This document shows positions 7,187-39,569 of a stretch of DNA of 64,000 nucleotides, in pieces. The position numbers were made by a program, and so were the translations under genes. The notes below the pieces were generated by a model. It made no database searches and was not told where the DNA came from. It saw nothing but the letters and a program-made list of their open reading frames with translations. How positions within the stretch are numbered: position 1 is the first letter of the stretch; each line of letters starts with the position of its first letter. The DNA lies in the IMG/VR virus record IMGVR_UViG_3300044825_003843, positions 1-64,000 of that record; one strand, given 5' to 3'. This stretch comes from a virus. Taxonomy: Duplodnaviria; Heunggongvirae; Uroviricota; Caudoviricetes.

Positions 7187-8275
7187 CTATTTTATCTTAT
7201 CCACTAATTTTAATGCAGAAGCAATAATTTGGTGCATATCGTAGTAAATATAATTTGCCAATCTACCTCCAAAGAAAATGTTTTTTTCTTTTTTTGATAA
7301 CTCGGAATATTTCTCATAGAGTGAGCTGTTTACTGAGTCTCTTATTGGATAGTATGGTTCATTATATCCTGTGTAGTTTTCTGGGTATTCATAACTCACA
7401 ATTGTACCTTTTTGTTGTTGGAAATCAAACCATTTGTGTTCTACTATTCTTGTGTAAGGGATGTCTTTGTCGGTATAGTTCATAACAGGCACACCTTGAA
7501 AGTTATCGTCCTCCAAATGTTTTTCTTCCCATCTTAAACTTCTGTATTCTAACTTTCCGAATCTGTAGTCGTAAAATCTATCAATTTCTCCTGTGAATAT
7601 TACTTTACTACATAGTGAATTATATTTCTCCCTACTTTCGAAATAATCGACCCCTAATTCAACATCAATCCCATGCAACATTTTTTCAAATATTTGGGTG
7701 TAACCACCTATTGGCATTCCAACGTATTTGTCATCGAAATAACTACTGTTCCATGTAAATCTTACAGGTAATCTTTTTATAATATATGAAGGTAACTCAT
7801 CACAAGACTTGTTCCATTGTTTTTCCGTATATCCCTGTATTAATATTCTATATATGTCTTCCCCAACTAATGATTTTGCTTGTTGTTCTAAATTGACAAT
7901 TTCCCCTTTGTATTTTTGATTTTCAATAACATTTCTCGCATCAATTTCGTTATTAACCCCCCATATTTGATTGAAGGTCCACAAATTGAACGGTAAGGAA
8001 TATATTTTGTCTTTATAGTTAGCTAAAACATTATGTGTATATTGTTTGAATTCCGCGAATTGATTTACATAGTCCCATAGGTATTTTTCATTGGTATGAA
8101 AAATATGAGCCCCATGTTTGTGAACATGAATTCCATTGATGTTTTCAGTATAACAATTACCTCCAATAACATTCCTCTTATCAATCACTAAACATTTATA
8201 TCCTAATTTAGTCAATTCATATGCACAAGTTGTGCCGAAAATTCCCGAACCCACAATAAGGAAATCATACATCAT
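7187..8275 (-). CDS. glf: UDP-galactopyranose mutase
   Basis: N-terminal FAD fold DFLIVGSGIFGTTCAYEL...VIDKRNVIGGNCYTE...GIHVHKHGAHIFHTN and near full-length colinearity with bacterial Glf (YTEKQW, RFTWNSSYFDDKYVGMPIGGYT, YTRIVEHKWF, YYPI). Confidence 0.93.
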   Translation of the reverse strand: MMYDFLIVGSGIFGTTCAYELTKLGYKCLVIDKRNVIGGNCYTENINGIHVHKHGAHIFHTNEKYLWDYVNQFAEFKQYTHNVLANYKDKIYSLPFNLWTFNQIWGVNNEIDARNVIENQKYKGEIVNLEQQAKSLVGEDIYRILIQGYTEKQWNKSCDELPSYIIKRLPVRFTWNSSYFDDKYVGMPIGGYTQIFEKMLHGIDVELGVDYFESREKYNSLCSKVIFTGEIDRFYDYRFGKLEYRSLRWEEKHLEDDNFQGVPVMNYTDKDIPYTRIVEHKWFDFQQQKGTIVSYEYPENYTGYNEPYYPIRDSVNSSLYEKYSELSKKEKNIFFGGRLANYIYYDMHQIIASALKLVDKIK

Positions 8276-9438
8276 GAAAAACTAAAAGAAAAACTGTTTA
8301 AATTTATAGTCGGTCTTGATAATTTATTTGTATATGTTTCTTTTAAGGTATTTAACAAGGTACCAGTATTGTGATAAATTCTATCGTCAATCAAAAAACA
8401 AAGATTCGGGTATGGGTTCGGTCTATCAACAGAAGCCATAAATTCTACTAAGTTTAACGCTTCTTGATATCTACCTTGAGCGTCCAAAATTTCTACTTTG
8501 TGGAACAGGTGTTCATTTCTATTAGGACAAAAATCTTCAGCAAAATCAAAATATTTGAATGTTTTGTCTTTTTCACCCATGAATTCATATGCTTGTGCCA
8601 TCAAGATTAGTGCAAAATACGCCATTTCATTATTTGATGTTGCAATTGGGTTTTCAGGTGTCCATCCGTGAACTAACTCCAAATACCTTTCGAAATACCA
8701 TATACCCCTCCTCGCATACTCGTCCGAGTGTTGCTTACCAAAAGCTAATTCATCAGGTCTACCATAACAGTCAGTATAACTTTTTGCAATATACCATAAA
8801 TGATATAAATCATGTTTAACTTTATCACCAACAATGTTATCAATTTCCAATTCTAAAGCATCTCTCAGAAACTTTCTTGGAACGTGCCAAGTTTGCCCAT
8901 CTTGAGAAACCCTGTGTCTAAATGATTGAGGTAAAGTTACTCTTTGGAAGTTTTCACCAATATTGGGTAAATGAATAGTTTCATGTCTTTTATCTAATTG
9001 GAAAAACCAAGGTAATTTAGCGTTCCACATCCATGTTCTCATGTATCTTGTACCTCCATTCACAGCATTAACATTCCAACTCTCTACTTTGGTATCATCT
9101 AATATACTCCAATCAAAATCGTTATCAATCTCTAAAGTTTCGTCCGCATCCATTCTCAAAATCCAGTCACAACCATGGTCAGTTTGTAATGCAACTTGTA
9201 AAGTATGATTCCTATTCCAGCCAGGAAAGTTCCATTCAATAAAATAAGTAAACCCTTTGATTCCTTTTTGTTTAAAAAAGGTGTCAATTATTTCTCTCGT
9301 GTTGTCTCCTTTACCATTACATTGTATTACATAATAATCGATATATGGTGCCACAGACTCCAACATTCTTGTTATTGTCGGGGCTTCATCACCGACCATC
9401 GCATTCAAACAAATTTTAGTTTTTTTATTCATATACAT
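8272..9438 (-). CDS. glycosyltransferase (GT-A/GT2-like N-terminal domain) with C-terminal TPR-like region
   Basis: ICLNAMVGDEAPTITRMLESV...YYVIQCNGKGDNTREII and RMDADE (DxD-like); helical repeat C-terminus. Confidence 0.5.
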   Translation of the reverse strand: MYMNKKTKICLNAMVGDEAPTITRMLESVAPYIDYYVIQCNGKGDNTREIIDTFFKQKGIKGFTYFIEWNFPGWNRNHTLQVALQTDHGCDWILRMDADETLEIDNDFDWSILDDTKVESWNVNAVNGGTRYMRTWMWNAKLPWFFQLDKRHETIHLPNIGENFQRVTLPQSFRHRVSQDGQTWHVPRKFLRDALELEIDNIVGDKVKHDLYHLWYIAKSYTDCYGRPDELAFGKQHSDEYARRGIWYFERYLELVHGWTPENPIATSNNEMAYFALILMAQAYEFMGEKDKTFKYFDFAEDFCPNRNEHLFHKVEILDAQGRYQEALNLVEFMASVDRPNPYPNLCFLIDDRIYHNTGTLLNTLKETYTNKLSRPTINLNSFSFSFS

Positions 9439-10672
9439 AATTCATTTTTTGTTCTTCATCATAAAACTTTCTTATGGAAACACTATTTTGAAATTTTTGA
9501 GAGTGTCCTTCTTCTTCTATCCAATTCCAATCAAAAAATCCTAAGTAATTAATTCTTTCATGAATTGCTAAATCATAGTAATCTCTTATTAATCTTGCTC
9601 TTCGATTGATATCCTGAGCGTTGTTGTCTGTTGTAGTGTCTCTACTACTATATTGAAAATATAAAACTTTTTTCACATGTATCATCCTTGTATTCAAAAA
9701 AGTCCTGATGAGTATTTCCAAATCATCTGCTACAGGTGTATTTTTATTGTGTCCTCCGATTTCATGATACAGATTTCTTTCCCACATTCTTACGTGGTTG
9801 GGCATACTAATGTTGAATCTTATAGACAAAGGGTTGATATCAGGATATCTGTGTGCTAATATTTCATTTCCATCAACAGTTTCCCATTCATGTCCAGCAT
9901 AACCAAAATCGAAAAAGTTATCATGTCTTGCATACCAATTACCTGTCCAATCGTGGTCATAATATTTAAACTCACCTGTTTCATAGAACTCACAACAATC
10001 TGAATATAAAAATCCCGCGTCAGGAAATCGTAGAATAGCATCGTCTGCAACCGCCAAACAATTTGTGGTAAGACAATCGTCATGGTCAAGTTCTATTAAC
10101 CAATCACCATCACACAACATTGCCGCTCTATGTTTTGCCAAACCAACATTCCCACCCGTTATTGGATTTAGTTTGTATATTTTAACACGGTAATCTAACG
10201 ACTCTATGTCTTTTAGAATTTTGAAGGTTTCTTCGTTTGGTGAGTCATCAACAACAACCCATTGCCAATTCTTAAGTGTTTGATTTTTTAAACTTTCATA
10301 CGTTCTATAAATTCTTTCACCCGTATTATACGTGGGGGTAAAAATTGAGAACCTTGGTCTTATAACCTCACAGGATTTAAACACGGTTTGACAAACAATA
10401 TCATTAGCCAAAACACTATCAGGTAATTGTTGTTGATAGTATCTATAAATCCTAAGTAATCTGTAATTGTTTATTGGAATATCCTGACCAAACGAGATAA
10501 TTAAGTCAGGTTTATACTTTGTGAAATCAAGTTCCATGTTACCATCATAAGTAAGTGAATAAACTTCAACACTTTCATGTAACCCTTCCTCCCAATATAC
10601 ATCAGAAGTCAATGTGTGGTGACCAATTCGGTCCCAACCATATACAATAGCCGTAGGTTTTTTTGTTTTCAT
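9425..10672 (-). CDS. family 2 glycosyltransferase
   Basis: FSIFTPTYNTGERIYRTYESLKNQTLKNWQWVVVDDSPNE ... IELDHDD (GT2 DxD motifs). Confidence 0.7.
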   Translation of the reverse strand: MKTKKPTAIVYGWDRIGHHTLTSDVYWEEGLHESVEVYSLTYDGNMELDFTKYKPDLIISFGQDIPINNYRLLRIYRYYQQQLPDSVLANDIVCQTVFKSCEVIRPRFSIFTPTYNTGERIYRTYESLKNQTLKNWQWVVVDDSPNEETFKILKDIESLDYRVKIYKLNPITGGNVGLAKHRAAMLCDGDWLIELDHDDCLTTNCLAVADDAILRFPDAGFLYSDCCEFYETGEFKYYDHDWTGNWYARHDNFFDFGYAGHEWETVDGNEILAHRYPDINPLSIRFNISMPNHVRMWERNLYHEIGGHNKNTPVADDLEILIRTFLNTRMIHVKKVLYFQYSSRDTTTDNNAQDINRRARLIRDYYDLAIHERINYLGFFDWNWIEEEGHSQKFQNSVSIRKFYDEEQKMNYVYE

Positions 10673-10709
10673 GGATTAAATTTAAAGAAAAAAAAGATAC
10701 CTGTAAAGT

Positions 10710-11042
10710 CTAATCACCATCATCATTCCAAGATGTTAATATGAATTCTAAATTTATGTAATTGATTTGATTATACTTGTTTTTTGTTACGGATGCCTTC
10801 ATTCCTCCTGTTGCGGTGAAGAATGACTCCCAAGGTCTCAAAGTTTTACTTTCGAGCGCCCCTTTAATCGCATTATCAATCAAATATCTAGCATTACTTT
10901 TCAAATCGTCAACATTTGGAACTCCCCGACCAGGAACACCAGCCCATGTCCAATTCAAAAATCTCATAGTTTTTTCTGTTTTTTCCCAATTGAAATGCTC
11001 CATGACGGTTTCAATCATGTCCTCGAGTTTCTTTCGTTTCAT
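10710..11042 (-). CDS. hypothetical protein
   Basis: 110-aa ORF. Confidence 0.4.
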   Translation of the reverse strand: MKRKKLEDMIETVMEHFNWEKTEKTMRFLNWTWAGVPGRGVPNVDDLKSNARYLIDNAIKGALESKTLRPWESFFTATGGMKASVTKNKYNQINYINLEFILTSWNDDGD

Positions 11043-11061
11043 ATTTTTTTGTTTAAAGGAA

Positions 11062-11079
11062 AACTCCCCGAAGGGAGTT
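11062..11079 (-). terminator. putative rho-independent terminator hairpin
   Basis: aactccccgaagggagtt stem-loop immediately downstream of the 11084..11824 gene, followed on minus strand by T-rich tract. Confidence 0.4.
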
Positions 11080-11083
11080 CTAA

Positions 11084-11824
11084 TTAACTTACCGCATCTA
11101 ACGCCATGGACATATCACCATCCCACTTAATGATTTTGGACTTCGGAACCCAAAACTCCATCTCTCCAATCTCTTCTACTCTTTTCAAATATTCCTCTCT
11201 AAATCTGTTCGCTTGGGACTTGTCTGTGATATACTCAACTCCCATGTGACCAGCACAAATCTTACCCATACGAGTCAACATTGAGAACTCATCAGTCAAA
11301 GTTTTAGCACAACACATACAAACGTCCCCTCTTTTAACTGTCATCTTTCCTGAGAACTTAACCGCCTTCGGAGAAATTGCCAATATCTTAGTGATATCAA
11401 GAAGGATTGGATTGAACTTCAAACCATACTTCTCTTTCAATCCCTGACCCACAGTTCTTCCCACTTTGATGGTTTCACCTGGTGTCGGCCACTTGACATG
11501 GATAGTTTCGTTTTTGTCTTTCTCTTTCTGAATTGTTTTGGTTGCTGCTTCAACCTGCTTGTTAGTGAGTGTCCCGTAAGTAATCAACTTTTTCTTGATG
11601 TCAGCTACAAACGCACTTGGACCATTGTAATCAGCAATAATTTTGAGTTCTTCAGGTAACTCCTGAACGTTCACTTTAACTTCTGAATTCAAACACTTCT
11701 CAACCGCGGCTTCTTGTGCGGGAGTCAAACCTCCGTAACGTGAAATTGTTTCTTTCATTTTCATAACAAAACTGTTTGAACCTTGATAGTTTCTTACTTT
11801 GCTAACGGTGTTAATTGTTGTCAT
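11084..11824 (-). CDS. hypothetical protein (possible virion protein), preceded by conserved promoter motif
   Basis: 246-aa ORF with internal YGxLTxxQ repeats; conserved upstream motif 11836..11857. Confidence 0.5.
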   Translation of the reverse strand: MTTINTVSKVRNYQGSNSFVMKMKETISRYGGLTPAQEAAVEKCLNSEVKVNVQELPEELKIIADYNGPSAFVADIKKKLITYGTLTNKQVEAATKTIQKEKDKNETIHVKWPTPGETIKVGRTVGQGLKEKYGLKFNPILLDITKILAISPKAVKFSGKMTVKRGDVCMCCAKTLTDEFSMLTRMGKICAGHMGVEYITDKSQANRFREEYLKRVEEIGEMEFWVPKSKIIKWDGDMSMALDAVS

Positions 11825-11835
11825 ATAGTGGTGAT

Positions 11836-11857
11836 TTGTGAATACAAAGATACGACC
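11836..11857 (-). promoter_or_regulatory. conserved upstream element, Bacteroidetes-type promoter (TAnnTTTG) plus palindrome TTTGTATTCACAAA
   Basis: minus-strand reading GTCGTATCTTTGTATTCACAAA about 15-35 nt upstream of ATG; identical 22-mer at 12487..12508 and related copy at 44536..44554. Confidence 0.55.
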
Positions 11858-12002
11858 TTTTTCTCATTCCGCCAAATAAAAAATCCCTCAATTTGAGGGA
11901 CCTTTTTTCCTAAATTTTCCAGCAAAATTGTCAAAAACTATGATACAAACAAGAATCAGTGGTACACTGAAAAGATACAACAAAATCGAAATCTTGAAGA
12001 TA

Positions 12003-12476
12003 TTAATTATTTCTAAAAGCATAATCAGCCCAAGTTTTAGCGTTTACAAGTTCCCACAATTTCATGTCACACATATCAGGGAAAGAAGTTCTCATATCAC
12101 CTACGGTCAAAACTTTCAGGAAACCCAAATCTATACTATACCATTTACCCCCTTTGGTTGTTAGAACATTAAACCAAAGAACCTTACCGTTATCGTAGGT
12201 GTGTTTAACTTGAATATTTACGAGACCGTTTTTGGACCAAGGAGAAATAACGTCCTTGGGAGTTCCTGTTATATCAGTAATATTGACAAATCCCGCTTTA
12301 CATTTAGCCGCCACACGGAACTCATACTGTTTATTGTCATCCTTGAGATGGTTAGAAACCATAACTGAGGTTCTCTTACCTTTGATTGTGGTATCGAAAG
12401 AACCGTAAAAAACATCTCCTGACATTACTGGGTCTGTACTAACTTTAACTGCGGGGGTGGTAGTGATTGTGTTCAT
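12003..12476 (-). CDS. hypothetical protein (beta-rich, possible structural)
   Basis: 157-aa ORF preceded by same conserved upstream motif. Confidence 0.45.
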   Translation of the reverse strand: MNTITTTPAVKVSTDPVMSGDVFYGSFDTTIKGKRTSVMVSNHLKDDNKQYEFRVAAKCKAGFVNITDITGTPKDVISPWSKNGLVNIQVKHTYDNGKVLWFNVLTTKGGKWYSIDLGFLKVLTVGDMRTSFPDMCDMKLWELVNAKTWADYAFRNN

Positions 12477-12486
12477 ATGTTGTTTT

Positions 12487-12508
12487 TTGTGAATACAAAG
12501 ATACGACT
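12487..12508 (-). promoter_or_regulatory. second copy of conserved promoter-like element
   Basis: tttgtgaatacaaagatacgac identical to copy at 11836..11857. Confidence 0.55.
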
Positions 12509-12614
12509 TTCTATATTGTCAGCCAAAACTTTTTTTTGTATTGATTTTCAGTTAGTTATGTTTTCTACTGAGGGGAAAACTGTAGATTTTTAGTCAATTG
12601 TTGTATTTATTGGA

Positions 12615-13529
12615 ATGAGTAATAGGTTAAAAAAACTTGCAAGTATTATTAGTGATGAATTCAGTGATAATTTAACAAAAATCTACGGTTCAGTTTTGAC
12701 TTTTCAGTCAGAAAATCCTGATTATTTTGTACCAACTTTTACCGCCAATGATACAATTAAATTGGTATATTATATCTATTCTCTCAAAAAAACTGATGGT
12801 TTTGACTTTGCTGAAAAAATTATCCCTGAGTTACATCTTGCACAATTTTTTGATTATAATAAAGTAAGTGTACATCAGGAAAATTGTGATAATTGTGATG
12901 GTGATGGAAATGAGACATGTCAATATTGTGATGGAAATGGGCAGATAAGTTGTGACAGTTGTGAGGGCGAAGGTGAAGTAGATTGTAATATGTGCGATGG
13001 AGAGGGTAGAACAGAATGTAGTGAATGCGATGGTGAAGGTGATATCGATGGAGAAACATGTGATAATTGTAGTGGGAACGGTGAAGTTGAGTGTGATACT
13101 TGTGGAGGTGGTGGTAAAAAAACTTGTAATAGTTGTGGTGGTGATGGGTATGAAAGTTGTGATGAATGTAGTGGCAACGGGTCAATAAATTGTGATTACT
13201 GCGATAATGATGGTCAAATAGATACTGAAGATTTCGATTATATAATACATGAATATCTGATATTTGACGATGACCTTATAGATGGTCTTTACAGGGATTG
13301 GCAAAATAACACACCCTTAGGTCATACCCTCGAGTTCAAGGGAAGACCAACAGTTCTCTTAATCAATAGTAGATGGGAATATGGTCAATTCGACCCATCA
13401 GTTAAAGAGTATGAAAAATATTGTTTCAACATATCCCCATTCAATTCAACAAGACTATTCTACAAAAGAAAAGGTGTATCAGTTGAAGGAATTAGTGCAA
13501 ATGACGAACCAGATACTTTATTGATTTAA
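12615..13529 (+). CDS. protein with about 14 tandem DnaJ-type CxxCxGxG zinc-finger repeats
   Basis: CDNCDGDGNETCQYCDGNGQISCDSCEGEGEVDCNMCDGEGRTECSECDGEGD...; N- and C-terminal flanks paralogous to 14205..15050. Confidence 0.65.
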   Translation: MSNRLKKLASIISDEFSDNLTKIYGSVLTFQSENPDYFVPTFTANDTIKLVYYIYSLKKTDGFDFAEKIIPELHLAQFFDYNKVSVHQENCDNCDGDGNETCQYCDGNGQISCDSCEGEGEVDCNMCDGEGRTECSECDGEGDIDGETCDNCSGNGEVECDTCGGGGKKTCNSCGGDGYESCDECSGNGSINCDYCDNDGQIDTEDFDYIIHEYLIFDDDLIDGLYRDWQNNTPLGHTLEFKGRPTVLLINSRWEYGQFDPSVKEYEKYCFNISPFNSTRLFYKRKGVSVEGISANDEPDTLLI

Positions 13530-13793
13530 ATTATCAATCCAATCCTGTAAAGGTTGATGGTCACCATTGTAAAGTTCCCTTCTCAAATCATGTTGAATAT
13601 GTTGTTCTTCTGTTGGAGTTTGTCCGTTTGTCAGAAGTTCTGTGTGTCTTTGACCTTGAATAAATTGTATGATATTTTGATAACATCGAGCAGAATAAAC
13701 GAAGTTCTCACACTCAAAAACAACATATTTTGTAAACTCTTCAGGTGAAATCAGAGTTCTTATAAAAGTAAATCCAGTAGTTTCGTAACTCAT
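13518..13793 (-). CDS. hypothetical protein
   Basis: 91-aa ORF. Confidence 0.35.
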   Translation of the reverse strand: MSYETTGFTFIRTLISPEEFTKYVVFECENFVYSARCYQNIIQFIQGQRHTELLTNGQTPTEEQHIQHDLRRELYNGDHQPLQDWIDNLNQ

Positions 13794-13798
13794 AGTTT

Positions 13799-14140
13799 TT
13801 ATTTATAATTACACACGTTTGATTGAAAACAACCCTGTCCCGCACCTTCAACATAACCGACTCTTGTATCAATATGAGTATAGGTTTTGTAAGGTGACAC
13901 TTTACCACAGACAACACATTTATCATATCCGTTTTCTACATAAGAATCTTTTTTTGGTAAATGTATTCCCTTGACCAATCCGTCTTCATCAGCAATAATC
14001 ATAAACTTTTCGTCATCATATTCACGGATAGATTCCTCTTCTTTTTCTTCCCAATACATTTTTCTTACTTTTTCACCCAATTCTGCATCGTTAGGTGTAT
14101 TCAAAATTTCGTTTTCAGACAAATTAATAGTTATTGACAT
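13799..14140 (-). CDS. hypothetical protein with putative zinc ribbon
   Basis: CVVCGKV...GQGCFQSNVC. Confidence 0.4.
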   Translation of the reverse strand: MSITINLSENEILNTPNDAELGEKVRKMYWEEKEEESIREYDDEKFMIIADEDGLVKGIHLPKKDSYVENGYDKCVVCGKVSPYKTYTHIDTRVGYVEGAGQGCFQSNVCNYK

Positions 14141-14204
14141 ATAATTTAGTTTTTTGAAAACATAATCAAACTAATTCAATTTTCCAAAGCTATTTATAGT
14201 TTGA

Positions 14205-15050
14205 ATGAAAAATACAATCAAGAAAATTTGTTTAACATTGTTAGAGGATTGTCCTGAATCCCTCAATGGAATTTATTTGGAAGTGAAAAAACAACTTAAA
14301 TCACAACCTAATTATTTCTCGAGATTTTCTACTGCTGAAAAGTTTGAAATCGTTTACGGTATTTTTTCTCTCAAACAAACAGGACGTTTTGATTTGGCTG
14401 AACAAATTTTACCAAATATCAAGTTAGTTTCAATCTTCAATTTTTTATCAGATGATTTTGCAGAAATCGATTGTCCAAAGTGTGAAGGAGGTGAAAACCG
14501 ATGCAAGGAATGTAACATGTTCGGTGTAGTCAAATGTGATGATTGTGATGGTGAGGGTAGCCAATTTTGTTACAAATGCTATGGGACAGGTGAATACGGA
14601 AATGCCGATTGTGATAATTGCAGAGGAACTGGTCAAATTAGATGTAAGGTGTGTAATGGAGATTCAATGTTAACTTGTCCTGAATGTGGTGGTGACAAAG
14701 TTTTAACCTGTAACGAATGTGGTGGACAAGGAATGTTAGAATCTGAACAAGTGAACTTTAACCTATACGATTATATAATTTACGATAAAAATATATTACG
14801 ATATCTGTTCGATAGAGCCGAGTTGTTCAAACCTATCGGAGAAAATTCGAGCTTTTCTGATTCAATATCTTCGAATGAGAATATACTTCATTTAGGGTTA
14901 AGGTTTGATACCTTTGAACCAAAATCATTTGTTCAAGAAAAAGATTATTGTTATTTCATAGGTTCTATTAACGACGAAGAAAAAATAAATTGGAATATTT
15001 CTCCATCACCAATAGTCTCGACATTACCTCACAAGTATGTAAAAAAATAA
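14205..15050 (+). CDS. paralogous CxxCxGxG zinc-finger repeat protein
   Basis: DCPKCEGGENRCKECNMFGVVKCDDCDGEGSQFCYKCYGTGEYGNADCDNCRGTGQIRCKVCNGDSMLTCPECGGDKVLTCNECGGQG; shares flanking domains with 12615..13529. Confidence 0.65.
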   Translation: MKNTIKKICLTLLEDCPESLNGIYLEVKKQLKSQPNYFSRFSTAEKFEIVYGIFSLKQTGRFDLAEQILPNIKLVSIFNFLSDDFAEIDCPKCEGGENRCKECNMFGVVKCDDCDGEGSQFCYKCYGTGEYGNADCDNCRGTGQIRCKVCNGDSMLTCPECGGDKVLTCNECGGQGMLESEQVNFNLYDYIIYDKNILRYLFDRAELFKPIGENSSFSDSISSNENILHLGLRFDTFEPKSFVQEKDYCYFIGSINDEEKINWNISPSPIVSTLPHKYVKK

Positions 15051-15052
15051 AA

Positions 15053-15072
15053 AGAGAGACCGTAGTCTCTCT
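15053..15072. terminator. bidirectional terminator hairpin between convergent genes
   Basis: agagagaccgtagtctctct perfect 8-bp stem, A-run upstream and T-rich downstream. Confidence 0.5.
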
Positions 15073-15116
15073 TTATTGGGACTGCCCGATAAGGGACAAT
15101 CGCTCCACCACCAAGT

Positions 15117-15395
15117 TTAACTTGGAAAAATCAACTCGTTTATGATTCTTTCTGTCTCTTGAGCAGATACCCAAGCCATCACATCATCTTTTAGGTCAGG
15201 AAAATATTTCTTGGTTACAAATTCTTTTGTCTGTTTGTCTATGAGAGCAATTTCAAAATCATTCTCGAAATCACCATATAAACCTGGTCTACCACCTACA
15301 ATAGAAATCATAAATGAGTCTGACTCGATTATTGTTTGTTTTGCATCATCGGGTCTTGTCGTTGCGAGAGATACTACGTCTTGAATCGTTATCAT
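15117..15395 (-). CDS. hypothetical protein
   Basis: 92-aa ORF. Confidence 0.4.
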   Translation of the reverse strand: MITIQDVVSLATTRPDDAKQTIIESDSFMISIVGGRPGLYGDFENDFEIALIDKQTKEFVTKKYFPDLKDDVMAWVSAQETERIINELIFPS

Positions 15396-15401
15396 ATGTT
15401 A

Positions 15402-15686
15402 TTATTTTGAGACTGGTGACTCTATTTTAGATTTATTGATAAGTTGGTCAGTCAATGTTAAATAGTGTGTTTTAGTGGTTATTACGGACTCCACAAGGGT
15501 CTTGTAGGGAACGTGAATCAAGAAGTCTACCCCATTGAAAAAAGTAAGGTCTTCTTTCATGGTCAAACAACCTTGAATCATCTTCAAAAAAAGTTTGAAC
15601 TGAGATGGATTGACAAAATCTTCATCAACCAAAGTGCCGTAGGTTTCATTGATAACCCTGATGTTGTAGTGACTCATTGTATTCAT
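15402..15686 (-). CDS. hypothetical protein
   Basis: 94-aa ORF. Confidence 0.4.
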   Translation of the reverse strand: MNTMSHYNIRVINETYGTLVDEDFVNPSQFKLFLKMIQGCLTMKEDLTFFNGVDFLIHVPYKTLVESVITTKTHYLTLTDQLINKSKIESPVSK

Positions 15687-15722
15687 ATTACAAAGATATG
15701 GAAAAAAACATTACCAAAAAAA

Positions 15723-16268
15723 TTATTCTTGAGTGTTTTGTATAATTGGGGTGAAATTTTTACCCGAATCACTCATTATTCTGAAAGTTTGTATTTCTCC
15801 CAAATCGGGGAAACTTACCTGTTCTACAGTAATTCCCCACTTCTCCACCTGTTCGTTAATCTCAGGTGTTACCACACTACTCAAATCATACAAATCAGCC
15901 CATTTACAACCTTCAACTATATCACGAATAATTCCCTGTGTTGTATCAACCAAGACATCATTAGCATGCATTACTCCTAACAAAAACTTTCTAACGTCGT
16001 GAATATGGTATCGAACAATACTTGTGAGAACGACACTTTTCTCATCTTCAGAAGTCACAGTTTGGGGTGATAAGTTTACAGTCTGAGTTATTACAGGAGT
16101 TGTGATTATTTGGTCAAAGAAAGGAATTTTCCAATTCAAACCCGGTTCCACAACCTTTATGAATTTACCTACTCTGAGATGAACACCCATTTCCCATTGG
16201 TCAACAATTTTGAAGGGTAAAAAATCTCCAATAAAAGTTACGATTAAATCGATGAGTTTGTCAAACAT
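15723..16268 (-). CDS. SPFH/band-7 domain protein (stomatin/HflC-like)
   Basis: IVDQWEMGVHLRVGKFIKVVEPGLNWKIPFFDQI...KSVVLTSIVRYHIHDVRKF...WGITVEQVSFPDL fits SPFH core. Confidence 0.65.
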   Translation of the reverse strand: MFDKLIDLIVTFIGDFLPFKIVDQWEMGVHLRVGKFIKVVEPGLNWKIPFFDQIITTPVITQTVNLSPQTVTSEDEKSVVLTSIVRYHIHDVRKFLLGVMHANDVLVDTTQGIIRDIVEGCKWADLYDLSSVVTPEINEQVEKWGITVEQVSFPDLGEIQTFRIMSDSGKNFTPIIQNTQE

Positions 16269-16332
16269 TTTATGTAATTTTGAAACACAAAGTTACTTAA
16301 AATAATCCAAATCACAAATATTTATAAAAACC

Positions 16333-16605
16333 ATGGAAAAAGATTTTGAAGTTTTGAAAAAAATTCTTAAAGAAATGAATTTCGCTGAAGGATTCATTGA
16401 TATGTTACTGAGTTTTGTAAAAAAACAAATGTTATCATATAATTTTGATAAATTGACACCAAACTTCCTTTACACTATTTTGATGTACGAAATTGGTAGG
16501 AATAATGCAAGAGACGTTTCTGAATATTTTGAAGATTATTTGAAAAAGGGAACTTACAAAACTAAACTGCAAGACTTATTGGATAAGTCTCCGTGGATGA
16601 GATAA
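16333..16605 (+). CDS. hypothetical protein
   Basis: 90-aa ORF followed by strong terminator. Confidence 0.4.
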   Translation: MEKDFEVLKKILKEMNFAEGFIDMLLSFVKKQMLSYNFDKLTPNFLYTILMYEIGRNNARDVSEYFEDYLKKGTYKTKLQDLLDKSPWMR

Positions 16606-16608
16606 TAA

Positions 16609-16633
16609 AAACCCTCCGTTTGGAGGGTTTTTT
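16609..16633. terminator. bidirectional rho-independent terminator
   Basis: aaaccctccgtttggagggtttttt: 6-bp GC-rich stem, GTTT loop, T-run; between convergent genes. Confidence 0.7.
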
Positions 16634-16635
16634 AT

Positions 16636-17823
16636 TTATTGTTGTTGTCTATTTCTCATCCTCTCAACCTTACGTTGTTGTTGAGGTGTTAAGTTAGTTT
16701 GTGGTACTTGAAATGTTGGTGCTTGTGTCGATAAATTCTGTGGTATTTGATTAGATATTTGTGTGTTTCTGTCAGGTCTATCTAATTTCACTGGTTGTTC
16801 CAACTCTCTTTTAGTAGGTATTGGTTCTTCCTGAGATGGATTTTGTTGTCCTTTACTTGCTAAATAAGCTTTTTTAATCTCTTCATCTTGCCATGCTCTA
16901 CTTGTATTTGGTCCAAATTTACCGAAGCCTTTTTGAACATTACCACCAAGTGTTTGATATTTAGAATGCCATCCAGGTTTATTTGTATCCAACCAAGTTT
17001 GGAAATCCTGAACTCCTTTTACATCCACTAATTCAGAAGGAATTTCATAACTTGTTGATGAGCTTGAACTTGTTCCATAACCAGTTACTGGTGTGTCTTG
17101 CGGTGGTTGTTCTGGTTGTCCTTCAGATTGAACTCCATTATCTTTAGCAAATTGCCAAAGAACCGCACCTGTTATACCTATACCAGCAGCAAACGCTAAG
17201 GTTTTTTTCCACCCTTTTGTTTTTAGTGAAGTCAACAAATTATCTTTATATTTTGTTAGATTCTCTTTAGCCTTTGTCAAACCTTCTTTGGTTTTTTGAA
17301 TCAATGATTTTTTGCCTTGTTGTATTGGTGGTGGTGCAATACTATCATATTTTTTCATAATTCTTTTGATACCATCATCAGAATATCCATTTTGTTTTAA
17401 TAAAACTTTTCTATCTGCCGCTGAAGCATTTTGGAATTGTACAGCCTTTGTTCCTTTTGAATTTGCTAGTTGTTTTGCATAACCCTCGGCCGCTGCATCA
17501 GCAAGTCCAACCAATTCATCTGTTTGTTTCGCATTTTTTAAGAGACCTTGCTGTAATTCTTGCATGACGTTTGCTGATGCCTTACCCTGTTTAGCTAATG
17601 CTAATACTTTTTCAGCACCACCAGCATTTTTCAAAGAAGGTATTATATTGTCTAATTGTGCTGAAATTGTCTTAATAAAATCATCACTATATCCTTGAAT
17701 TAGTTTAGCAAAAAAACCTGATTCGACTAATAAGTCAAGATTTTCAGTAAGAGTTAGCTCTGTTTTATAATTTGAAAGAATTCTCATTCTTTCCAATTCT
17801 TCTTTCAATAAATTCTCTGTCAT
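16636..17823 (-). CDS. hypothetical membrane-anchored protein with Q/P-rich C-terminus (possible internal virion/ejection protein)
   Basis: one TM segment (TLAFAAGIGITGAVLWQF), low-complexity S/Q/P-rich tail. Confidence 0.4.
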   Translation of the reverse strand: MTENLLKEELERMRILSNYKTELTLTENLDLLVESGFFAKLIQGYSDDFIKTISAQLDNIIPSLKNAGGAEKVLALAKQGKASANVMQELQQGLLKNAKQTDELVGLADAAAEGYAKQLANSKGTKAVQFQNASAADRKVLLKQNGYSDDGIKRIMKKYDSIAPPPIQQGKKSLIQKTKEGLTKAKENLTKYKDNLLTSLKTKGWKKTLAFAAGIGITGAVLWQFAKDNGVQSEGQPEQPPQDTPVTGYGTSSSSSTSYEIPSELVDVKGVQDFQTWLDTNKPGWHSKYQTLGGNVQKGFGKFGPNTSRAWQDEEIKKAYLASKGQQNPSQEEPIPTKRELEQPVKLDRPDRNTQISNQIPQNLSTQAPTFQVPQTNLTPQQQRKVERMRNRQQQ

Positions 17824-17842
17824 TTTTATTTTTTTTTATTTT

Positions 17843-19075
17843 TTATAAAGATTGATTGAAATCTATACCTGTATCATCGAATGATACAGAAGAATAATCT
17901 TGAGGGGTAGAAGTCTTACCGCCACCACCACCACTAGATAACCCATAAGCAAGCCCTGTTGATAACCCAACACCTACCGCGCCTTGTGATATTTTAGCAG
18001 CGTTCGGTGCGGAGGCACCAAGTTTTTGAGCTGTTTTCGTAACTATTTTACCAGGAGCATTAACCACTGCAGCACCTCCCTTTATAGCACCTTGACCTAA
18101 ATAAGCCAAAGTGTCAACTATTTTTTTAATAAATCCTGAAACTTTAGTAATAAGTCCACTAACCCATTTATGTATTGTTGGTGATTTTGTTGCCAACCAT
18201 TGTGAAGCTTGACTTAATAAACCCGGTACCTTGTCTAAAGAACTTTTTATTTTATCTACTATTTTAATCATAGCTGGAGATTTTTGAATTCCAGCTCTCA
18301 TTGTTTGTAAATTTTTTCCGAACCCCCTTACGAAAGCACCAACCACACCCTTTGCTGTTTTAGCCGCAACGCCAGCGAAAACCAGCCCTATCATATCGAC
18401 TCCAGTGAACAACAACTTTGTATACAAATTCTGTCCTTCAGGATAATCTCCACTTACCAATTCATAGATATCCAATGCAACAACGATTGCCCATACAACA
18501 AATTGAGCAGCTTTTCCAATTCCCGATGCAACTAAAATAGCATCTAAAACCATACCTACAGGATGATAGAGAGCATCTCTCAATTTTCTTGCCAAATATA
18601 AAGTGCCTTTTTTAACAATATCCAAAGCTTGCATCCACTCACTTTGACTGAATTTTGAATAAGCATCTTTTGCTCCTTGTATTGTTTTTTGAATGACCTG
18701 CTTAGTACCTTGAACCGCCTCTTTCCCTTTTTGATATGCCCAATCCATGAAACCTTCTTCATTCAATAAAATAAATTGAGACTTGAGAAACTGTAGTTGT
18801 GTTTTACTTTCTAATAATACTATTGAATTGATATCTTTTTTAATCTGAATTAAGTTTTCATTCAGAGTTTTCGGAACATCGTTGAAGAATACTTTGAAGT
18901 TATCAAAACTTTCCCAAATGTTTCCAAGATGTTTTTTATTTTTCAAATCATACATCTCATCAAGGAAAATTGCATAGTTTTCATTCAAAGATACCAAAGC
19001 AGTTATCGCAATCTTTTCTCTTTCGATATTATATTGTGAAAGTATTTCTCTTTTTTCACTTTCTGAGATAATCAT
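17843..19075 (-). CDS. hypothetical Gly/Ala-rich membrane-associated protein
   Basis: hydrophobic helices (AAQFVVWAIVVALDI, VDMIGLVFAGVAA) and GGGGGK tract; weak similarity to 24218..25351. Confidence 0.4.
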   Translation of the reverse strand: MIISESEKREILSQYNIEREKIAITALVSLNENYAIFLDEMYDLKNKKHLGNIWESFDNFKVFFNDVPKTLNENLIQIKKDINSIVLLESKTQLQFLKSQFILLNEEGFMDWAYQKGKEAVQGTKQVIQKTIQGAKDAYSKFSQSEWMQALDIVKKGTLYLARKLRDALYHPVGMVLDAILVASGIGKAAQFVVWAIVVALDIYELVSGDYPEGQNLYTKLLFTGVDMIGLVFAGVAAKTAKGVVGAFVRGFGKNLQTMRAGIQKSPAMIKIVDKIKSSLDKVPGLLSQASQWLATKSPTIHKWVSGLITKVSGFIKKIVDTLAYLGQGAIKGGAAVVNAPGKIVTKTAQKLGASAPNAAKISQGAVGVGLSTGLAYGLSSGGGGGKTSTPQDYSSVSFDDTGIDFNQSL

Positions 19076-19138
19076 CTTTTTTTACTATAAATACCCATAA
19101 GAACAAAAAAGTTTTTTTCTCATCCTATTTATTTATAC

Positions 19139-19468
19139 ATGAAAAACTTAAAAAAGTATTTGGATGAGATTTCAGGTAAAGAAATTCATAGTGTGTCAGT
19201 GTTCATAAGACTTCCATACGATTCAAGAAAAACTAAATTATCATTTAGTTTAAAAATAGAAAGTGCAAAGCTAACTGAGGTTTTGACTATTAAATTCAAT
19301 ATTTTTAATAGAAAAGTGAACGATGAGTCAGATGACCCAACGTTCGAATACTTATTCAGTAAAAATTCATTTCAAGAAGAATTTCAACGAGATACTTATG
19401 AAAACTATAACTTAGTAATCTTTGGTGTCGAGTTAGAAGATTTGGAATTGGTTTACGTGTTCAAATGA
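19139..19468 (+). CDS. hypothetical protein
   Basis: 109-aa ORF. Confidence 0.35.
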   Translation: MKNLKKYLDEISGKEIHSVSVFIRLPYDSRKTKLSFSLKIESAKLTEVLTIKFNIFNRKVNDESDDPTFEYLFSKNSFQEEFQRDTYENYNLVIFGVELEDLELVYVFK

Positions 19469-19474
19469 TTTTTA

Positions 19475-20329
19475 TTAAATTATTTCTATCTGAACCGAGT
19501 CAATTCGTTTTATACTTAACTCAAAATATTCTTTAGAAATTTCACTACCGATAAATTTTCTTCCTGTAAGTATTGAAGCTTTAGCAGTAGTTCCACTTCC
19601 CATAAATGGGTCATAAATAAGTTCTTCAGGGTTCGACCAACTAAGAATATGGTCTTTCACTAGTTGTATTGGAAATATTGCAGGATGTTGATATGCTATT
19701 TCGTCTTCTTGTCCGTTTTTCGATGTCTTATATGTCCAAACATTATATCTTTGTCCGTACTCATCAATTATTTTCTTTTTCCTTTCAATCATACTTCCGT
19801 CAACCTGCCTTGATGTATTTTTTCCCCAACTACCGACTTGTCCTCCGTAGACGTTTTTCCTGTCTTTTATTGAATTAAAAGTTTTTGGTTTACCCTTAGA
19901 AAACACAAACATATATTCAAAAATCTGATGATACCTGTTTGAAGATGGATTTGAAAAATTATTCTTCATGTAAATCATAGTATCATGGATATTGAATCCA
20001 ATTTCTTTGAAGAAAAGAGCCTGTCTGAATGAAGTGCCAGTTTCACTCCCTTTTTCCGTTCCATCTCCAACGACCCATACAACAACCCCGCCTTGTTTAG
20101 TGGTTCGATAAAGTTCCTTTGCAATATTTTCGAAATCAAATGAATAACCATTGAATTCGGTTTTTATACCTGAAATATGATTATTGTAAGTTCTTAAATC
20201 ATCATATGGTGGTGAAGTTATTGTTACGTCAATAGTATTATCAGCAATTTTACCTAAGGTTGTAAGACAATTTTCTTGATATATTTTATTAAATTGAATC
20301 ATAAATTTCGTAAAATTTTTTTGCTGCAA
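19475..20329 (-). CDS. DNA methyltransferase, beta-class (N4-cytosine or N6-adenine), SPPY motif
   Basis: motif IV TSPPY near N-terminus and motif I DPFMGSGTT near C-terminus: beta-class permutation as in M.PvuII. Confidence 0.8.
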   Translation of the reverse strand: MQQKNFTKFMIQFNKIYQENCLTTLGKIADNTIDVTITSPPYDDLRTYNNHISGIKTEFNGYSFDFENIAKELYRTTKQGGVVVWVVGDGTEKGSETGTSFRQALFFKEIGFNIHDTMIYMKNNFSNPSSNRYHQIFEYMFVFSKGKPKTFNSIKDRKNVYGGQVGSWGKNTSRQVDGSMIERKKKIIDEYGQRYNVWTYKTSKNGQEDEIAYQHPAIFPIQLVKDHILSWSNPEELIYDPFMGSGTTAKASILTGRKFIGSEISKEYFELSIKRIDSVQIEII

Positions 20330-20738: not shown

Positions 20739-20772
20739 TAGAAAATGATAATAAAATTTTTGACTACAACCA

Positions 20773-20806
20773 AATAAAAAACCCCATTTGTAGAAACAAA
20801 AGGGGT
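20773..20806 (-). terminator. putative terminator (minus strand)
   Basis: minus-strand CCCCTTTTG-loop-CAAATGGGG followed by TTTTTTTATTT. Confidence 0.45.
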
Positions 20807-20829
20807 CAATTAGTTAAAAAAACTTTGAG

Positions 20830-21780: not shown

Positions 21781-21788
21781 TTTTTTGT

Positions 21789-21860
21789 TGCGTGAGTAAG
21801 AATCGAACTTACGACCTAAAGGTTATGAGCCTTCCGAGCTACCGCTGCTCTATCACGCGA
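21789..21860 (-). tRNA. tRNA-Met (anticodon CAT), initiator-like
   Basis: 72-nt cloverleaf CGCGTGA-TA-GAGC-AGCGGTA-GCTC-G-GAAGG-CTCATAA-CCTTT-AGGTC-GTAAG-TTCGATT-CTTAC-TCACGCA-A; C1:A72 mismatch and A11:U24 typical of bacterial initiator tRNA. Confidence 0.8.
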
Positions 21861-22166
21861 TGTTAAGTTAAATTCTACCCATTCCCCGTCGTCACCATCC
21901 AAGTCATGCTCTGGTTGTACATGGGTAGAATCAATATATTAAAGAACTTTATTCGATTAAAAAGTCCCACAAATCTACGATACTTTTCTCAAACTACCAA
22001 ATTCGTGGGACTAAGGGGGGAGAGATGTTTGACCATCTCATTTGTTTCACAAAGTTAAGAAGAATTTCTCAATTCGTCAAATTTTTTCTTGTGAAACTTT
22101 TTTTGTGGGGTGTTCACCTTTTTACAGGTGTGGATATATAAATATCACATTAATTTGTAAAGTCAA

Positions 22167-32020: not shown

Positions 32021-32033
32021 GTATTTATAACAT

Positions 32034-39447: not shown

Positions 39448-39569
39448 CTGATAATACTATACGATAAATACCTTACAATAAAACTTTATATAGTAATTAA
39501 ACTATCATTCATATTGTTACAAAAAATAGTTATACTTCCACTCACAATAAATAAATAAAATACTCATTT

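Follow-up and report, generated by a model that had tools for sequence, protein, structure and literature searches.

Genes at the locus

Two plus-strand genes of the window, by which we mean the whole 64,000-nucleotide stretch of viral DNA that was analysed, encode members of a single protein family and are referred to here as ORF1 and ORF2 (Table 1). BLASTP aligns their products over the full length with 29% identity (E=5e-40), so that the sequence-only reading of this DNA was right to call them paralogues; the N- and C-terminal domains that it took them to share, put at about 80 and 100 aa, come out at about 90 and 104 aa. Once the repeats described below are excluded, identity falls to just 23%, and the two are then no nearer to each other than to copies from other phages; their sequences mark them as old paralogues. 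Measured against a relative that is 94% identical, dN/dS is 0.115 for ORF1 and 0.065 for ORF2, and purifying selection acts on both. Three relatives (P0009, P0022 and P0015) sit, like ORF2, between a 113-aa gene and a 92-aa gene, and ORF2 occupies the position at which the family ancestrally had its single copy. The 92-aa gene is convergent with ORF2, and the GC-rich palindrome with its flanking A-run and T-run is probably a bidirectional terminator common to the two.

Both genes have a promoter-like motif close to the start codon, and the same motif is found 5' of the family gene, or of the operon that contains it, in loci L001, L004, L005, L006 and L008. TATTTAT is likewise found 5' of a collagen-like tail-fibre operon and of some 20 further genes; it stands before a DNA methyltransferase gene as well, so it is not limited to structural genes. 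The opposite-strand neighbours of ORF1 and ORF2 carry Bacteroidota-type TAnnTTTG motifs, which ORF1 and ORF2 themselves lack. A scan for sigma-70-type promoters was uninformative, and a phage sigma factor gene lies at 54875..55672. We infer that ORF1 and ORF2 are expressed from middle or late promoters of a class specific to the phage, and not from host-type promoters. A motif held in common with the tail-fibre operon would speak against an Ocr-like, immediate-early role in anti-restriction and would fit an assembly role or a virion role equally well.

Table 1. Features of the two genes and their flanks (window coordinates; AF2, features taken from AlphaFold models)
Feature	Position	Strand	Description
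GTATTTAT promoter-like motif	12603..12610	+	4 nt 5' of ORF1 start codon
ORF1	12615..13529	+	304 aa; 5+5 zinc-ladder protein (predicted), polyanionic ladder
ORF1 N-terminal base part	12615..12884	+	aa 1-90; five helices, then long beta-strand aa 74-90 into ladder (AF2)
ORF1 zinc ladder	12885..13214	+	aa 91-200; 5 up + 5 down CxxCxGxG units, 5 Zn(Cys)4 predicted, net charge -27
ORF1 central tip linker DIDGET	13041..13058	+	aa 143-148; from spacing vector and AF2
ORF1 C-terminal base part	13215..13526	+	aa 201-304; beta-strand aa 201-216 back from ladder, then alpha/beta domain
TATTTAT promoter-like motif	14191..14197	+	7 nt 5' of ORF2 start codon
ORF2	14205..15050	+	281 aa; 4+4 zinc-ladder protein (predicted), ladder near neutral
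ORF2 zinc ladder	14472..14732	+	aa 90-176; 4+4 CxxC units, 4 Zn(Cys)4 predicted, net charge -5
Palindromic GC-rich hairpin with A-run and T-run flanks	15051..15074		immediately 3' of ORF2 stop codon

Repeat layout and predicted structure

Each protein had been credited with 10-14 CxxCxGxG units and described as built almost entirely of them. The count is in fact 10 CxxC units in ORF1 (nine strict CxxCxGxG and one loose, starting at aa 91, 102, 113, 124 and 135, then at 149, 160, 171, 182 and 193) and eight in ORF2 (four strict, with both glycines kept, and four loose, starting at aa 90, 100, 111 and 122, then at 136, 147, 158 and 169). This places 20 and 16 cysteines, respectively, in CxxC pairs, and the repeats make up only 36% of ORF1 (110 of 304 aa) and 31% of ORF2 (87 of 281 aa). 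The DnaJ-type character of the units and a copy number above DnaJ's four were both borne out: in a six-frame translation of the window the strict motif is confined to ORF1, ORF2 and the DnaJ gene, so the repeats stand far above chance. Neither gene has a tandem repeat at the DNA level, which rules out recent slippage as the origin of the units.

The units of ORF1 follow one another at intervals of 11, 11, 11, 11, 14, 11, 11, 11 and 11 residues, the single interval of 14, from unit 5 to unit 6, being given by the DIDGET linker, which is taken as the hairpin turn. The same plan recurs in 76 of 83 related proteins, which have an even number of CxxC pairs, 11-aa spacing and a sole long linker lying exactly at the centre (3+3 in six, 4+4 in 47, 5+5 in 17, 6+6 in four and 7+7 in two). 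Versions with 2+2 units on the same base also exist (P0087 and P0133), and the members that seem to have seven units carry a CxC inside the linker, so that their cysteines remain in fours. Spacings of 10 residues occur now and then; read by eye in the spacing lists, they showed no consistent mirror symmetry and were dropped as evidence. In the solved structures of DnaJ and BSD2, motifs 1 and 4 pair on one zinc and motifs 2 and 3 on another. Sets of units at 11-residue spacing, mirror-symmetric round one linker across these proteins, point to Zn(Cys)4 centres stacked as a ladder, in which ascending unit i and descending unit 2n+1-i would bring four cysteines onto one zinc; judging by homology, the ladders would indeed bind zinc. 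The hairpin, elsewhere commonly of 2+2 units, would thereby have been lengthened to 4+4 in ORF2 and 5+5 in ORF1, giving a rigid zinc ladder with four and five rungs, respectively.

AlphaFold (AF2) models, proposed in the sequence-only reading as a check, agree with this in part. The overall scores are pLDDT 85.2 and pTM 0.69 for ORF1 and 88.6 and 0.74 for ORF2. The base is modelled with confidence (pLDDT 89-97 for the N-terminal part in ORF1), as is the ladder of ORF2 (83-93), where short strands are mirror-placed at residues 97-99, 108-110 and 119-121 and at 144-146, 155-157 and 166-168; the ladder of ORF1 is modelled best at its tip (82-89), and its arms stay low (51-66). The helical N-terminal part and the alpha/beta C-terminal part would come together as one conserved base without known fold relative, from which two long antiparallel strands would emerge carrying the hairpin. 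No relatives of the N-terminal part of ORF1 were found in Pfam or the PDB. A profile of the N- and C-terminal base parts had no PDB match at E<0.25, and a two-sequence profile of these parts, run against the representative sequences, retrieved solely ladder-bearing proteins, with no hairpin-less ancestor among them. The base would be the constrained part, serving for docking or oligomerisation. Very probably, then, ORF1 and ORF2 belong to a phage-only family in which one base bears a hairpin of the DnaJ/BSD2 type extended to 4+4 or 5+5 mirror-paired units, which we call a zinc ladder.

Occurrence and genomic setting of the family

Clustered at 50% identity, the family amounts to 68 clusters in a set of 1.84 billion representatives, in keeping with the rarity claimed for such proteins at the outset, and to judge by these searches it is small, phage-only and seen in metagenomes only. 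In the family alignment the Cys and Gly columns of the repeats are invariant or more than 90% conserved, and no column outside the ladder is invariant. Pfam, PHROGs and NCBIfam hold no family model for either protein and give sub-threshold matches to the DnaJ-type cysteine-rich domain (CRD) only; a known structural family, such as a tail-fibre zinc module, was also sought in Pfam, PHROGs, the PDB and BFVD, with no match. The window had no megablast match in INPHARED, and the searches of IMG/VR and of GTDB genomes found no relatives. By tblastn the cysteine region alone was found in three uncultured huge phages, together with a weak match to a four-motif protein of E. coli phage mEp010. Phage CRDs with multiple rungs are not described in the literature searched, and neither there nor among solved structures was the multi-rung form found.

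The same ladder is also carried by longer phage proteins of 400-563 aa that are similarly acidic and otherwise unrelated, and in which no recognisable domains were found. The ladder protein of LR756504 and the window's PcfJ-like ORF are unrelated. In the huge phages the ladder proteins have DNA-metabolism and translation genes as neighbours, and in all eight loci examined the family gene is surrounded by genes of accessory type: glycosyltransferases, SPFH, NUDIX, methyltransferases and small ORFs. Plus-strand neighbours of 129 and 170 aa that accompany the relatives carry no annotation and are missing from the window.

Charge and surface evolution

The ladder of ORF1 consists of 27% Asp/Glu and 3% Lys/Arg, for a net charge of -27 over 110 aa (roughly 30 acidic residues to 3 basic ones). 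The mean for ladders of the family is -21.5 and the value for ORF2 is -5; the CRDs of the phage's own DnaJ and of E. coli DnaJ each stand at +3. The exposed ladder positions of ORF1 and nearly all its relatives are acidic or small, with Lys and Arg almost absent, so the predicted rod would be a polyanion of DNA-mimic composition. DNA-mimic proteins typically have a surface rich in Asp/Glu and poor in Lys/Arg; the ORF1 ladder shares this feature and that of ORF2 does not. For comparison, the 116 aa of Ocr include 34 acidic and 6 basic residues (PMC3439906). Another protein of the window (29978..31729) contains a 110-aa stretch that is still more acidic, at -34, so acidity alone is not unique to the ladder, and its purpose could be no more than to hold a long zinc ribbon in solution or away from DNA.

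The two ladders have also evolved very differently. Among close orthologues of ORF1 (P0001-P0003, 92-94% identical overall) the ladder surface retains 82-84% identity as against 96-99% for the N-terminal part, with dN/dS of 0.41 and 0.07, respectively; despite being the fastest-changing surface of the protein, these ladders hold their net charge at -25 to -27. The ladder of ORF2 has lost this acidity and gained hydrophobic and basic residues, and it shows zero non-synonymous changes relative to L001. The sequence-only reading did not contain the three features that most constrain function, namely the mirror layout of the hairpin, the acidity of the ladder and the promoter class.

Comparison with known zinc proteins and DNA mimics

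The phage's DnaJ gene was correctly recognised at 45753..46670; it lies on the minus strand, 31 kb from the ladder genes, and its product matches the J domain (E=1e-23) and DnaJ_C (E=6e-18) in Pfam, with a CRD score of 32.2 bits just short of the cut-off of 32.7. ORF1 and ORF2 have no J domain (PF00226, HPD) in a Pfam scan at E<=1, and no DnaJ_C (PF01556) or G/F region in a Pfam scan. Their scores against the DnaJ CRD model PF00684 are 19.6 and 16.5 bits (cut-off 32.7) and against PF25436, the BSD2 model, 21.0 and 15.9 bits (cut-off 27). The family HMM nevertheless reaches CRDs of known structure (E=9e-8 to 6e-5, with 1exk at E=9e-8), and the predicted ladder fold superposes on a solved CRD, the closest solved relatives being BSD2 and the DnaJ CRD.

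With the DnaJ CRD (PF00684; PDB 1EXK) the ladders have in common the motif and a position as an insert between two strands of the adjoining domain, and they are predicted to follow its principle of one zinc for two mirror-placed motifs (1+4, 2+3). The CRD differs in having four units at irregular spacings (13, 26 and 14 in the phage's own) and a charge of +3, whereas the ladders have 8-10 units with a regular 11-residue period and net charges of -5 to -27, in proteins that lack the J domain, G/F region and DnaJ_C. BSD2, the plastid Rubisco assembly chaperone (PF25436; PDB 6EKB), is like them in its 11-residue spacing of CxxCxGxG units, its want of a J domain and, as predicted for the ladders, its hairpin round a central linker; however, it has 2+2 units with two zincs, is not polyanionic and lacks a comparable base, whereas the 4+4 or 5+5 units of the ladders are inserted in a base without known fold relative. 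The J-less DnaJ-like zinc fingers of plants and algae (DnaJE, ZnJ2, ORANGE, PSA2 and LQY1) likewise carry a CRD on unrelated domains and act as client-specific assembly factors, but they are eukaryotic, carry four motifs and lack a multi-rung ladder, and many of them have a membrane anchor or a transit peptide.

Two further comparisons concern proteins that act by binding. Anti-TRAP (RtpA; PF15777; PDB 2BX9, 3LCZ) is a stand-alone zinc protein of CRD type that works by binding alone, blocking the RNA-binding surface of TRAP. Its sequence and fold matches to ORF1 and ORF2 are weak (20.4 and 18.9 bits against the anti-TRAP equivalog NF058604, cut-off 65, with just 24 residues matched), and it differs in being 53 aa long, with one zinc per chain, assembled in trimers and dodecamers, and without ladder or base. 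The DNA mimics, such as T7 Ocr and ArdA, are a functional class and not a sequence family. They resemble the ORF1 ladder in being elongated, non-enzymatic products of phages or mobile elements, in composition (about 27-29% Asp+Glu and 3-5% Lys+Arg) and in a surface whose sequence drifts while its charge is maintained. Known mimics, however, are helical proteins without zinc, most of them dimers, and no gene is expressed before Ocr, whereas the ladder would have a zinc-ribbon scaffold and has a promoter class that is not of host type.

Possible functions

Outside the Cys/Gly scaffold no polar residue is invariant, which argues that ORF1 and ORF2 are not enzymes, and no enzyme family or fold matched either of them in Pfam, PHROGs, NCBIfam or the PDB; their conservation suggests that function is probably a matter of binding more than of catalysis. 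Our tentative proposal, held at somewhat less than even confidence, is that both are non-catalytic, with the base docking and the acidic ladder, as the working surface, binding a basic nucleic-acid-binding surface. The rod of ORF1 would occupy such a surface, on a protein of either the host or the phage, and would act as a competitive inhibitor, in the manner of anti-TRAP and of DNA mimics such as Ocr, or else as an acidic holdase. Since ORF2 is not polyanionic, a mechanism based on charge cannot cover both copies, and ORF2 probably binds one specific partner by shape, more as BSD2 does. A bolder form of the proposal, which we consider rather unlikely, makes the acidic ladder a new structural solution to nucleic-acid mimicry, plugging the DNA- or RNA-binding grooves of host proteins that serve defence, the nucleoid or transcription. 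It would then be a rigid polyanionic rod of tunable length with 3-7 Zn(Cys)4 rungs, mounted by large Bacteroidota phages on a dedicated base and attached C-terminally to other proteins in huge phages of about 630-640 kb.

The sequence-only reading offered a virion rod, a holdase and a DnaK or DnaJ decoy as possible functions. The rod-on-base plan invites a structural explanation, in which the base would sit on the capsid or tail lattice of the virion and the rod would project outward as a decoration protein, whisker or short fibre, free in length and surface. The TATTTAT motif common to the ladder genes and the collagen-like tail-fibre operon suggests as much, as do the conservation of the base beneath a fast-evolving rod of 2 to 5 rungs and the rigid rod shape that the AF2 models suggest. 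Against this, the gene lies among accessory genes and not in the structural module in 8/8 loci examined, the company of the huge-phage ladder proteins is likewise not structural, TATTTAT precedes the methyltransferase gene too, and no similarity to virion proteins was found in PHROGs, BFVD or the PDB. Zn(Cys)4 sites exposed outside the cell are, moreover, prone to oxidation, and on balance a virion projection seems fairly unlikely. Expression that would coincide with that of the fibre genes is equally what one would expect of an assembly chaperone or holdase, a DnaJ/BSD2-like protein without J domain whose CRD would bind unfolded or assembly-intermediate clients and possibly hand them to phage DnaJ or host DnaK. 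Its nearest solved relatives, BSD2 and the DnaJ CRD, agree with such a role, as do the presence of a DnaJ gene in the phage and the hydrophobic and basic residues of the strongly conserved ORF2 ladder. Plastid J-less CRD proteins of the ZnJ2/BSD2 family, which act as assembly chaperones (PMC5818400), offer a precedent. But ORF1 and almost the whole family are polyanionic with few exposed hydrophobics, whereas client-binding CRDs stand at +3; the Pfam CRD scores lie under their gathering thresholds, J domain, G/F region and DnaJ_C are all absent, and there is no evident reason for a holdase to have 2 to 7 rungs, so that we regard this role as unlikely.

The abundance of CxxC pairs raises the question of redox or metal handling, the pairs serving as a thiol-disulfide oxidoreductase or the whole as a zinc store or buffer, and two studies (PMC4428491; 10.1101/2020.09.14.296681) reportedly attribute thiol-reductase or oxidase activity to the CRDs of DnaJ and ZnJ6. 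Such a role is very unlikely: the CxxCxGxG glycines and the strict mirror symmetry are kept in the manner of a scaffold and not of isolated active sites, the conserved base and polyanionic surface would be left unexplained, and the PDB fold search found no thioredoxin-like fold. Hardly credible, finally, is a decoy of host DnaK or DnaJ, that is, a multiplied, isolated CRD competing with host DnaJ for its substrates or for DnaK. Domain homology and the phage DnaJ gene at a distance of 31 kb speak for it and nothing else does; there is no J domain with its HPD motif to contact DnaK, the ladder and the CRDs of DnaJ differ in the sign of their charge, the conserved, family-specific base has no counterpart in DnaJ, and the phage's own working-looking DnaJ would be hit too.

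Significance

ORF1 and ORF2 represent a known kind of domain, the DnaJ/BSD2-type hairpin, in a new form. The architecture is well supported, and the function is inferred. If the architecture is true, the two-zinc hairpin of DnaJ and BSD2 is a modular building block to which rungs have apparently been added in mirror-placed pairs, giving rods of 2 to 7 zinc centres; such a metal-stapled rod of programmable length would be of interest to structural biologists and protein designers. The pair formed by the acidic, fast-evolving ORF1 and the neutral, frozen ORF2 is a natural experiment that could separate scaffold from function. The polyanionic surface, equal to Ocr in composition, leads to a testable prediction about phage-host conflict in the large freshwater phages of Bacteroidota, for which functional annotation is almost nil.

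Two paralogous ladder proteins

Both open reading frames, ORF1 and ORF2, were found exactly where the sequence-only reading had placed them (see table), and its claim of shared domains also holds, the two proteins aligning end to end (BLASTP E=5e-40, 29% identity). Its picture of proteins built almost entirely of 10-14 CxxCxGxG units was overstated: motif counts give 10 CxxC units in ORF1 (nine strict CxxCxGxG, the tenth CDYCDNDG; starting at residues 91, 102, 113, 124, 135, then 149, 160, 171, 182, 193) and 8 in ORF2 (4 of the 8 strict; starting at 90, 100, 111, 122, then 136, 147, 158, 169), and repeats make up 36% of ORF1 and 31% of ORF2. In a six-frame translation of the whole window, strict CxxCxGxG is confined to these two genes and the DnaJ gene. 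No tandem repeat was found in either gene at the DNA level, so the units are old rather than the result of recent slippage. Values of dN/dS against the 94%-identical relative L001 are 0.115 for ORF1 and 0.065 for ORF2, and both are, as judged from sequence, genuine genes.

AlphaFold2, run with the family alignment, gives confident models (ORF1, pLDDT 85.2 and pTM 0.69; ORF2, pLDDT 88.6 and pTM 0.74) in which five N-terminal helices lead into a strand of 17 residues, then the cysteine region and a return strand of 16 residues, with a C-terminal alpha/beta domain last. The cysteine region of ORF2 is modeled at pLDDT 83-93, with short strands at 97-99, 108-110 and 119-121 mirrored by 144-146, 155-157 and 166-168. 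The decisive support for the architecture comes from the sequences, in the mirror-symmetric layout of the units. Of 83 related proteins, 76 have an even number of units spaced 11 residues apart, with a single longer linker of 13-22 residues exactly at the center (3+3 in six, 4+4 in 47, 5+5 in 17, 6+6 in four and 7+7 in two); two members of the ORF1/ORF2 family have 2+2 units, and apparent seven-unit members carry a CxC in the linker that restores four cysteines at the tip. Unit number therefore changes only in mirror pairs, as would be expected if, with n units per arm, one zinc were shared by units i and 2n+1-i in the manner of the solved DnaJ and BSD2 domains, where motifs 1 and 4, and 2 and 3, each share one. 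Those domains are also the nearest solved structures to the family profile (1exk, E=9e-8; 2ctt, E=7e-6; 6ekb, E=6e-5) and 6ekb is matched by Foldseek (E=7e-4); none of the structures searched matched beyond a two-zinc stretch of the ladder. Very probably, then, the predicted "zinc ladder" of Zn(Cys)4 centers has five rungs in ORF1 and four in ORF2, and is mounted on a family-specific base formed by the N- and C-terminal parts; zinc binding is predicted from homology to zinc-binding cysteine-rich domains (CRDs).

Family and distribution

A sequence search returned 78 relatives: P0001-P0003 are near-identical orthologues, a further set of 265-312 aa shares the layout, and proteins of 400-527 aa have only the cysteine region in common. 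A two-sequence profile of the base, covering just the N- and C-terminal parts, was searched against 1.84 billion representatives. It recovered no more than 68 clusters, almost all of them 250-315 aa long and of the family architecture, and no hairpin-less version. All genomic contexts of relatives are phage-like metagenomic contigs; no relative was found in IMG/VR or GTDB genomes, nor any cultured one in the collections searched. In single-copy relatives the family gene is flanked by homologues of the 113-aa and 92-aa genes of the window, which is the ORF2 slot; ORF1 is the extra copy. With the repeats set aside, the two share only 23% identity and are no closer to one another than to other phages' copies, so the duplication or acquisition is old. 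The family gene is opposed in orientation to the surrounding genes at every locus examined (L001, L002, L004-L008). In all checked relatives with long flanks (L001/L002, L005-L008), glycan genes are found no more than a few kb from the family gene.

The ladder surface

The unit consensus is C-D-E-C-D-G-x-G-E-(V/I)-(E/D), and the ORF1 ladder has 27% Asp+Glu and 3% Lys+Arg, net -27 over 110 residues, within a protein of net charge -39; the window proteome averages 14% acidic and 12.9% basic residues. Averaged over 68 family members, the ladder has a net charge of -21.5, the C-terminal part -12 and the N-terminal part about -2. The C-terminal ladders of unrelated longer phage proteins are mostly as acidic; a CRD charge of +3 is found both in E. 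coli DnaJ and in the DnaJ of the phage itself. In comparisons of close orthologues, evolution is fastest at the ladder positions other than Cys and Gly (82-84% identity, vs. 96-99% for the N-terminal and 89-96% for the C-terminal part; dN/dS 0.41 vs. 0.07 for the base, on small counts), and despite this drift the ladder's net charge is held at -25 to -27. The ORF2 ladder is exceptional, with a net charge of -5, 10% Lys+Arg, several hydrophobic residues, only half of the glycine pairs and zero non-synonymous changes relative to L001. Only one window protein, encoded at 29978..31729 (-), exceeds the ORF1 ladder in acidity over a 110-aa stretch (net -34), located in its C-terminal ~120 aa; this protein has a coiled-coil-like region with weak FlxA and HSBP1 matches, and its gene also carries a TATTTAT motif.

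Genome context and expression

Features of the window discussed in the text
Feature	Position	Strand	Remarks
(G)TATTTAT promoter-like motif	12603..12610	+	ends 4 nt before ORF1 start
ORF1	12615..13529	+	304 aa
TATTTAT promoter-like motif	14191..14197	+	ends 7 nt before ORF2 start
ORF2	14205..15050	+	281 aa
UDP-galactopyranose mutase and GT2 glycosyltransferase cluster	7187..10672	-	
SPFH/Band_7 protein	15723..16268	-	
GOLLD RNA (Rfam RF02032)	20822..21229	-	316.5 bits vs. gathering 150, E=1.7e-90
tRNA-Met(CAT)	21787..21859	-	about 560 nt from GOLLD RNA; the window's one tRNA
Three consecutive ~700 aa collagen-repeat genes with C-terminal Peptidase_S74 chaperone domains	33065..39447	-	
DnaJ	45753..46670	-	305 aa
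Phage RNA polymerase sigma factor	54875..55672	-	PHROG 351, E=1e-54
SbcC- and SbcD-like nuclease subunits	58660..61035 and 62242..63021	-	

The window is AT-rich (about 32% GC) and densely coded, with most genes on the minus strand, and looks like part of a large phage; most of its proteins have no PHROG match, and megablast of 10000..20000 against INPHARED gave none. The collagen-repeat genes, with long triple-helix repeats and Peptidase_S74 domains that are intramolecular chaperones, are probably tail fibers and account for an island of 46-51% GC. DNA methyltransferases are also encoded. GOLLD, a large structured non-coding RNA, is matched over its full length (model positions 1-416) in an ORF-free gap, 20739..22166, of phage-like sequence. 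The DnaJ noted earlier is real, with J domain and DnaJ_C, though short: it scores 229 bits against TIGR02349 (equivalog cut-off 377), and its four-motif CRD falls 0.5 bit below the Pfam cut-off. Neither DnaK nor GrpE was seen among the genes of the window.

The 8-mer form of the (G)TATTTAT motif occurs 11 times in the window vs. 4.3 expected. About 20 start codons have (G)TATTTAT 1-17 nt upstream (further examples at 39464..39471, 44527..44534 and 32021..32028); TATTTAT stands at most 30 nt upstream of a correctly oriented ORF in 26 of 44 occurrences (control heptamers, 15-41%). Its bearers include the first gene of the collagen-fiber operon and a DNA methyltransferase, and in L001, L004, L005, L006 and L008 it stands before the family gene or the gene that opens its small operon. 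The opposite-strand neighbors (11084..11824, 12003..12476, 15402..15686 and the SPFH gene) have Bacteroidota-type TAnnTTTG boxes instead (regions 11840-11870, 12480-12510 and 15690-15710), the near-identical GTCGTATCTTTGTATTCACAAA preceding both 11084..11824 and 12003..12476. Going by motifs alone, ORF1 and ORF2 would fall into a middle or late class specific to the phage, and the two motif classes suggest a split between host-polymerase and phage-sigma promoters. By tblastn, 96 phage records, among them those of Prevotella, Bacillus and Enterococcus phages, contain relatives of the sigma factor at 37-40% identity. The TAnnTTTG boxes, along with a T9SS-type CHU_C domain in a related contig, suggest a Bacteroidota host.

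Possible functions

The family shows no catalytic signature and no invariant alignment column outside the ladder, and the proteins may well work through binding. The acidic rod would most plausibly meet a basic, nucleic-acid-binding surface of its partner, either as a competitive blocker, for which there are precedents in anti-TRAP, a CRD protein that acts on the RNA site of TRAP, and in DNA mimics like Ocr, or as an acidic holdase; we hold this reading tentatively, at somewhat under even odds. The neutral, frozen ORF2 would more likely recognize one specific partner, in the manner of BSD2.

That the ladder proteins form a virion projection would fit their promoter class and the contrast of conserved base with variable rod, but the gene neighborhoods are consistently non-structural and no similarity to any virion protein was found, leaving this unlikely. 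The ladder's charge speaks against a classical holdase for hydrophobic clients working with DnaJ and DnaK, to which we give slightly less credence still, and a redox or zinc-storage role seems improbable. The suggested decoy for DnaK or DnaJ is hardly credible for proteins that have no J domain and whose ladder charge is opposite in sign.

Comparison with known systems

At the domain level ORF1 and ORF2 are members of the DnaJ/BSD2 cysteine-rich hairpin superfamily, sharing its motif and fold while scoring below the curated Pfam thresholds. They are not DnaJ, for they have neither J domain nor DnaJ_C and break the four-motif rule, and identity with anti-TRAP was likewise rejected. The ORF1 ladder equals Ocr (34 acidic and 6 basic residues in 116; PMC3439906) in its acidic/basic make-up, a likeness to DNA mimics that is compositional only and would serve as a lead, not as evidence of membership.

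Acidic, mirror-symmetric ladders are also carried by huge phages: L009 2107..3798 (LR756504.1, 636 kb), P0055 (L010 10001..11521, on a 629,742-bp contig) and P0030 (L011) are proteins of 465-563 aa, otherwise unrelated and with no recognizable domains, that end in such a ladder at the very C-terminus, with 5+5 to 7+7 units in P0055 and P0030. In L010 the ladder gene is again opposed to its neighbors, 1.5 kb from a J-domain protein. Escherichia phage mEp010 encodes, in the recombination/early region of a lambdoid-type coliphage, a 242-aa hypothetical protein (L012 3731..4459; PP180001.1 18880..19608) in which a helical N-terminal part is followed by a basic CxxCxGxG domain of four motifs; the protein matches the family only weakly (E=4e-3) and was rejected as a member.

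What is new in these phage proteins is a hairpin lengthened in strict mirror pairs to four or five rungs (up to seven in related proteins), the insertion of this predicted zinc hairpin into a base with no known fold relative, and the polyanionic surface of the ladder.
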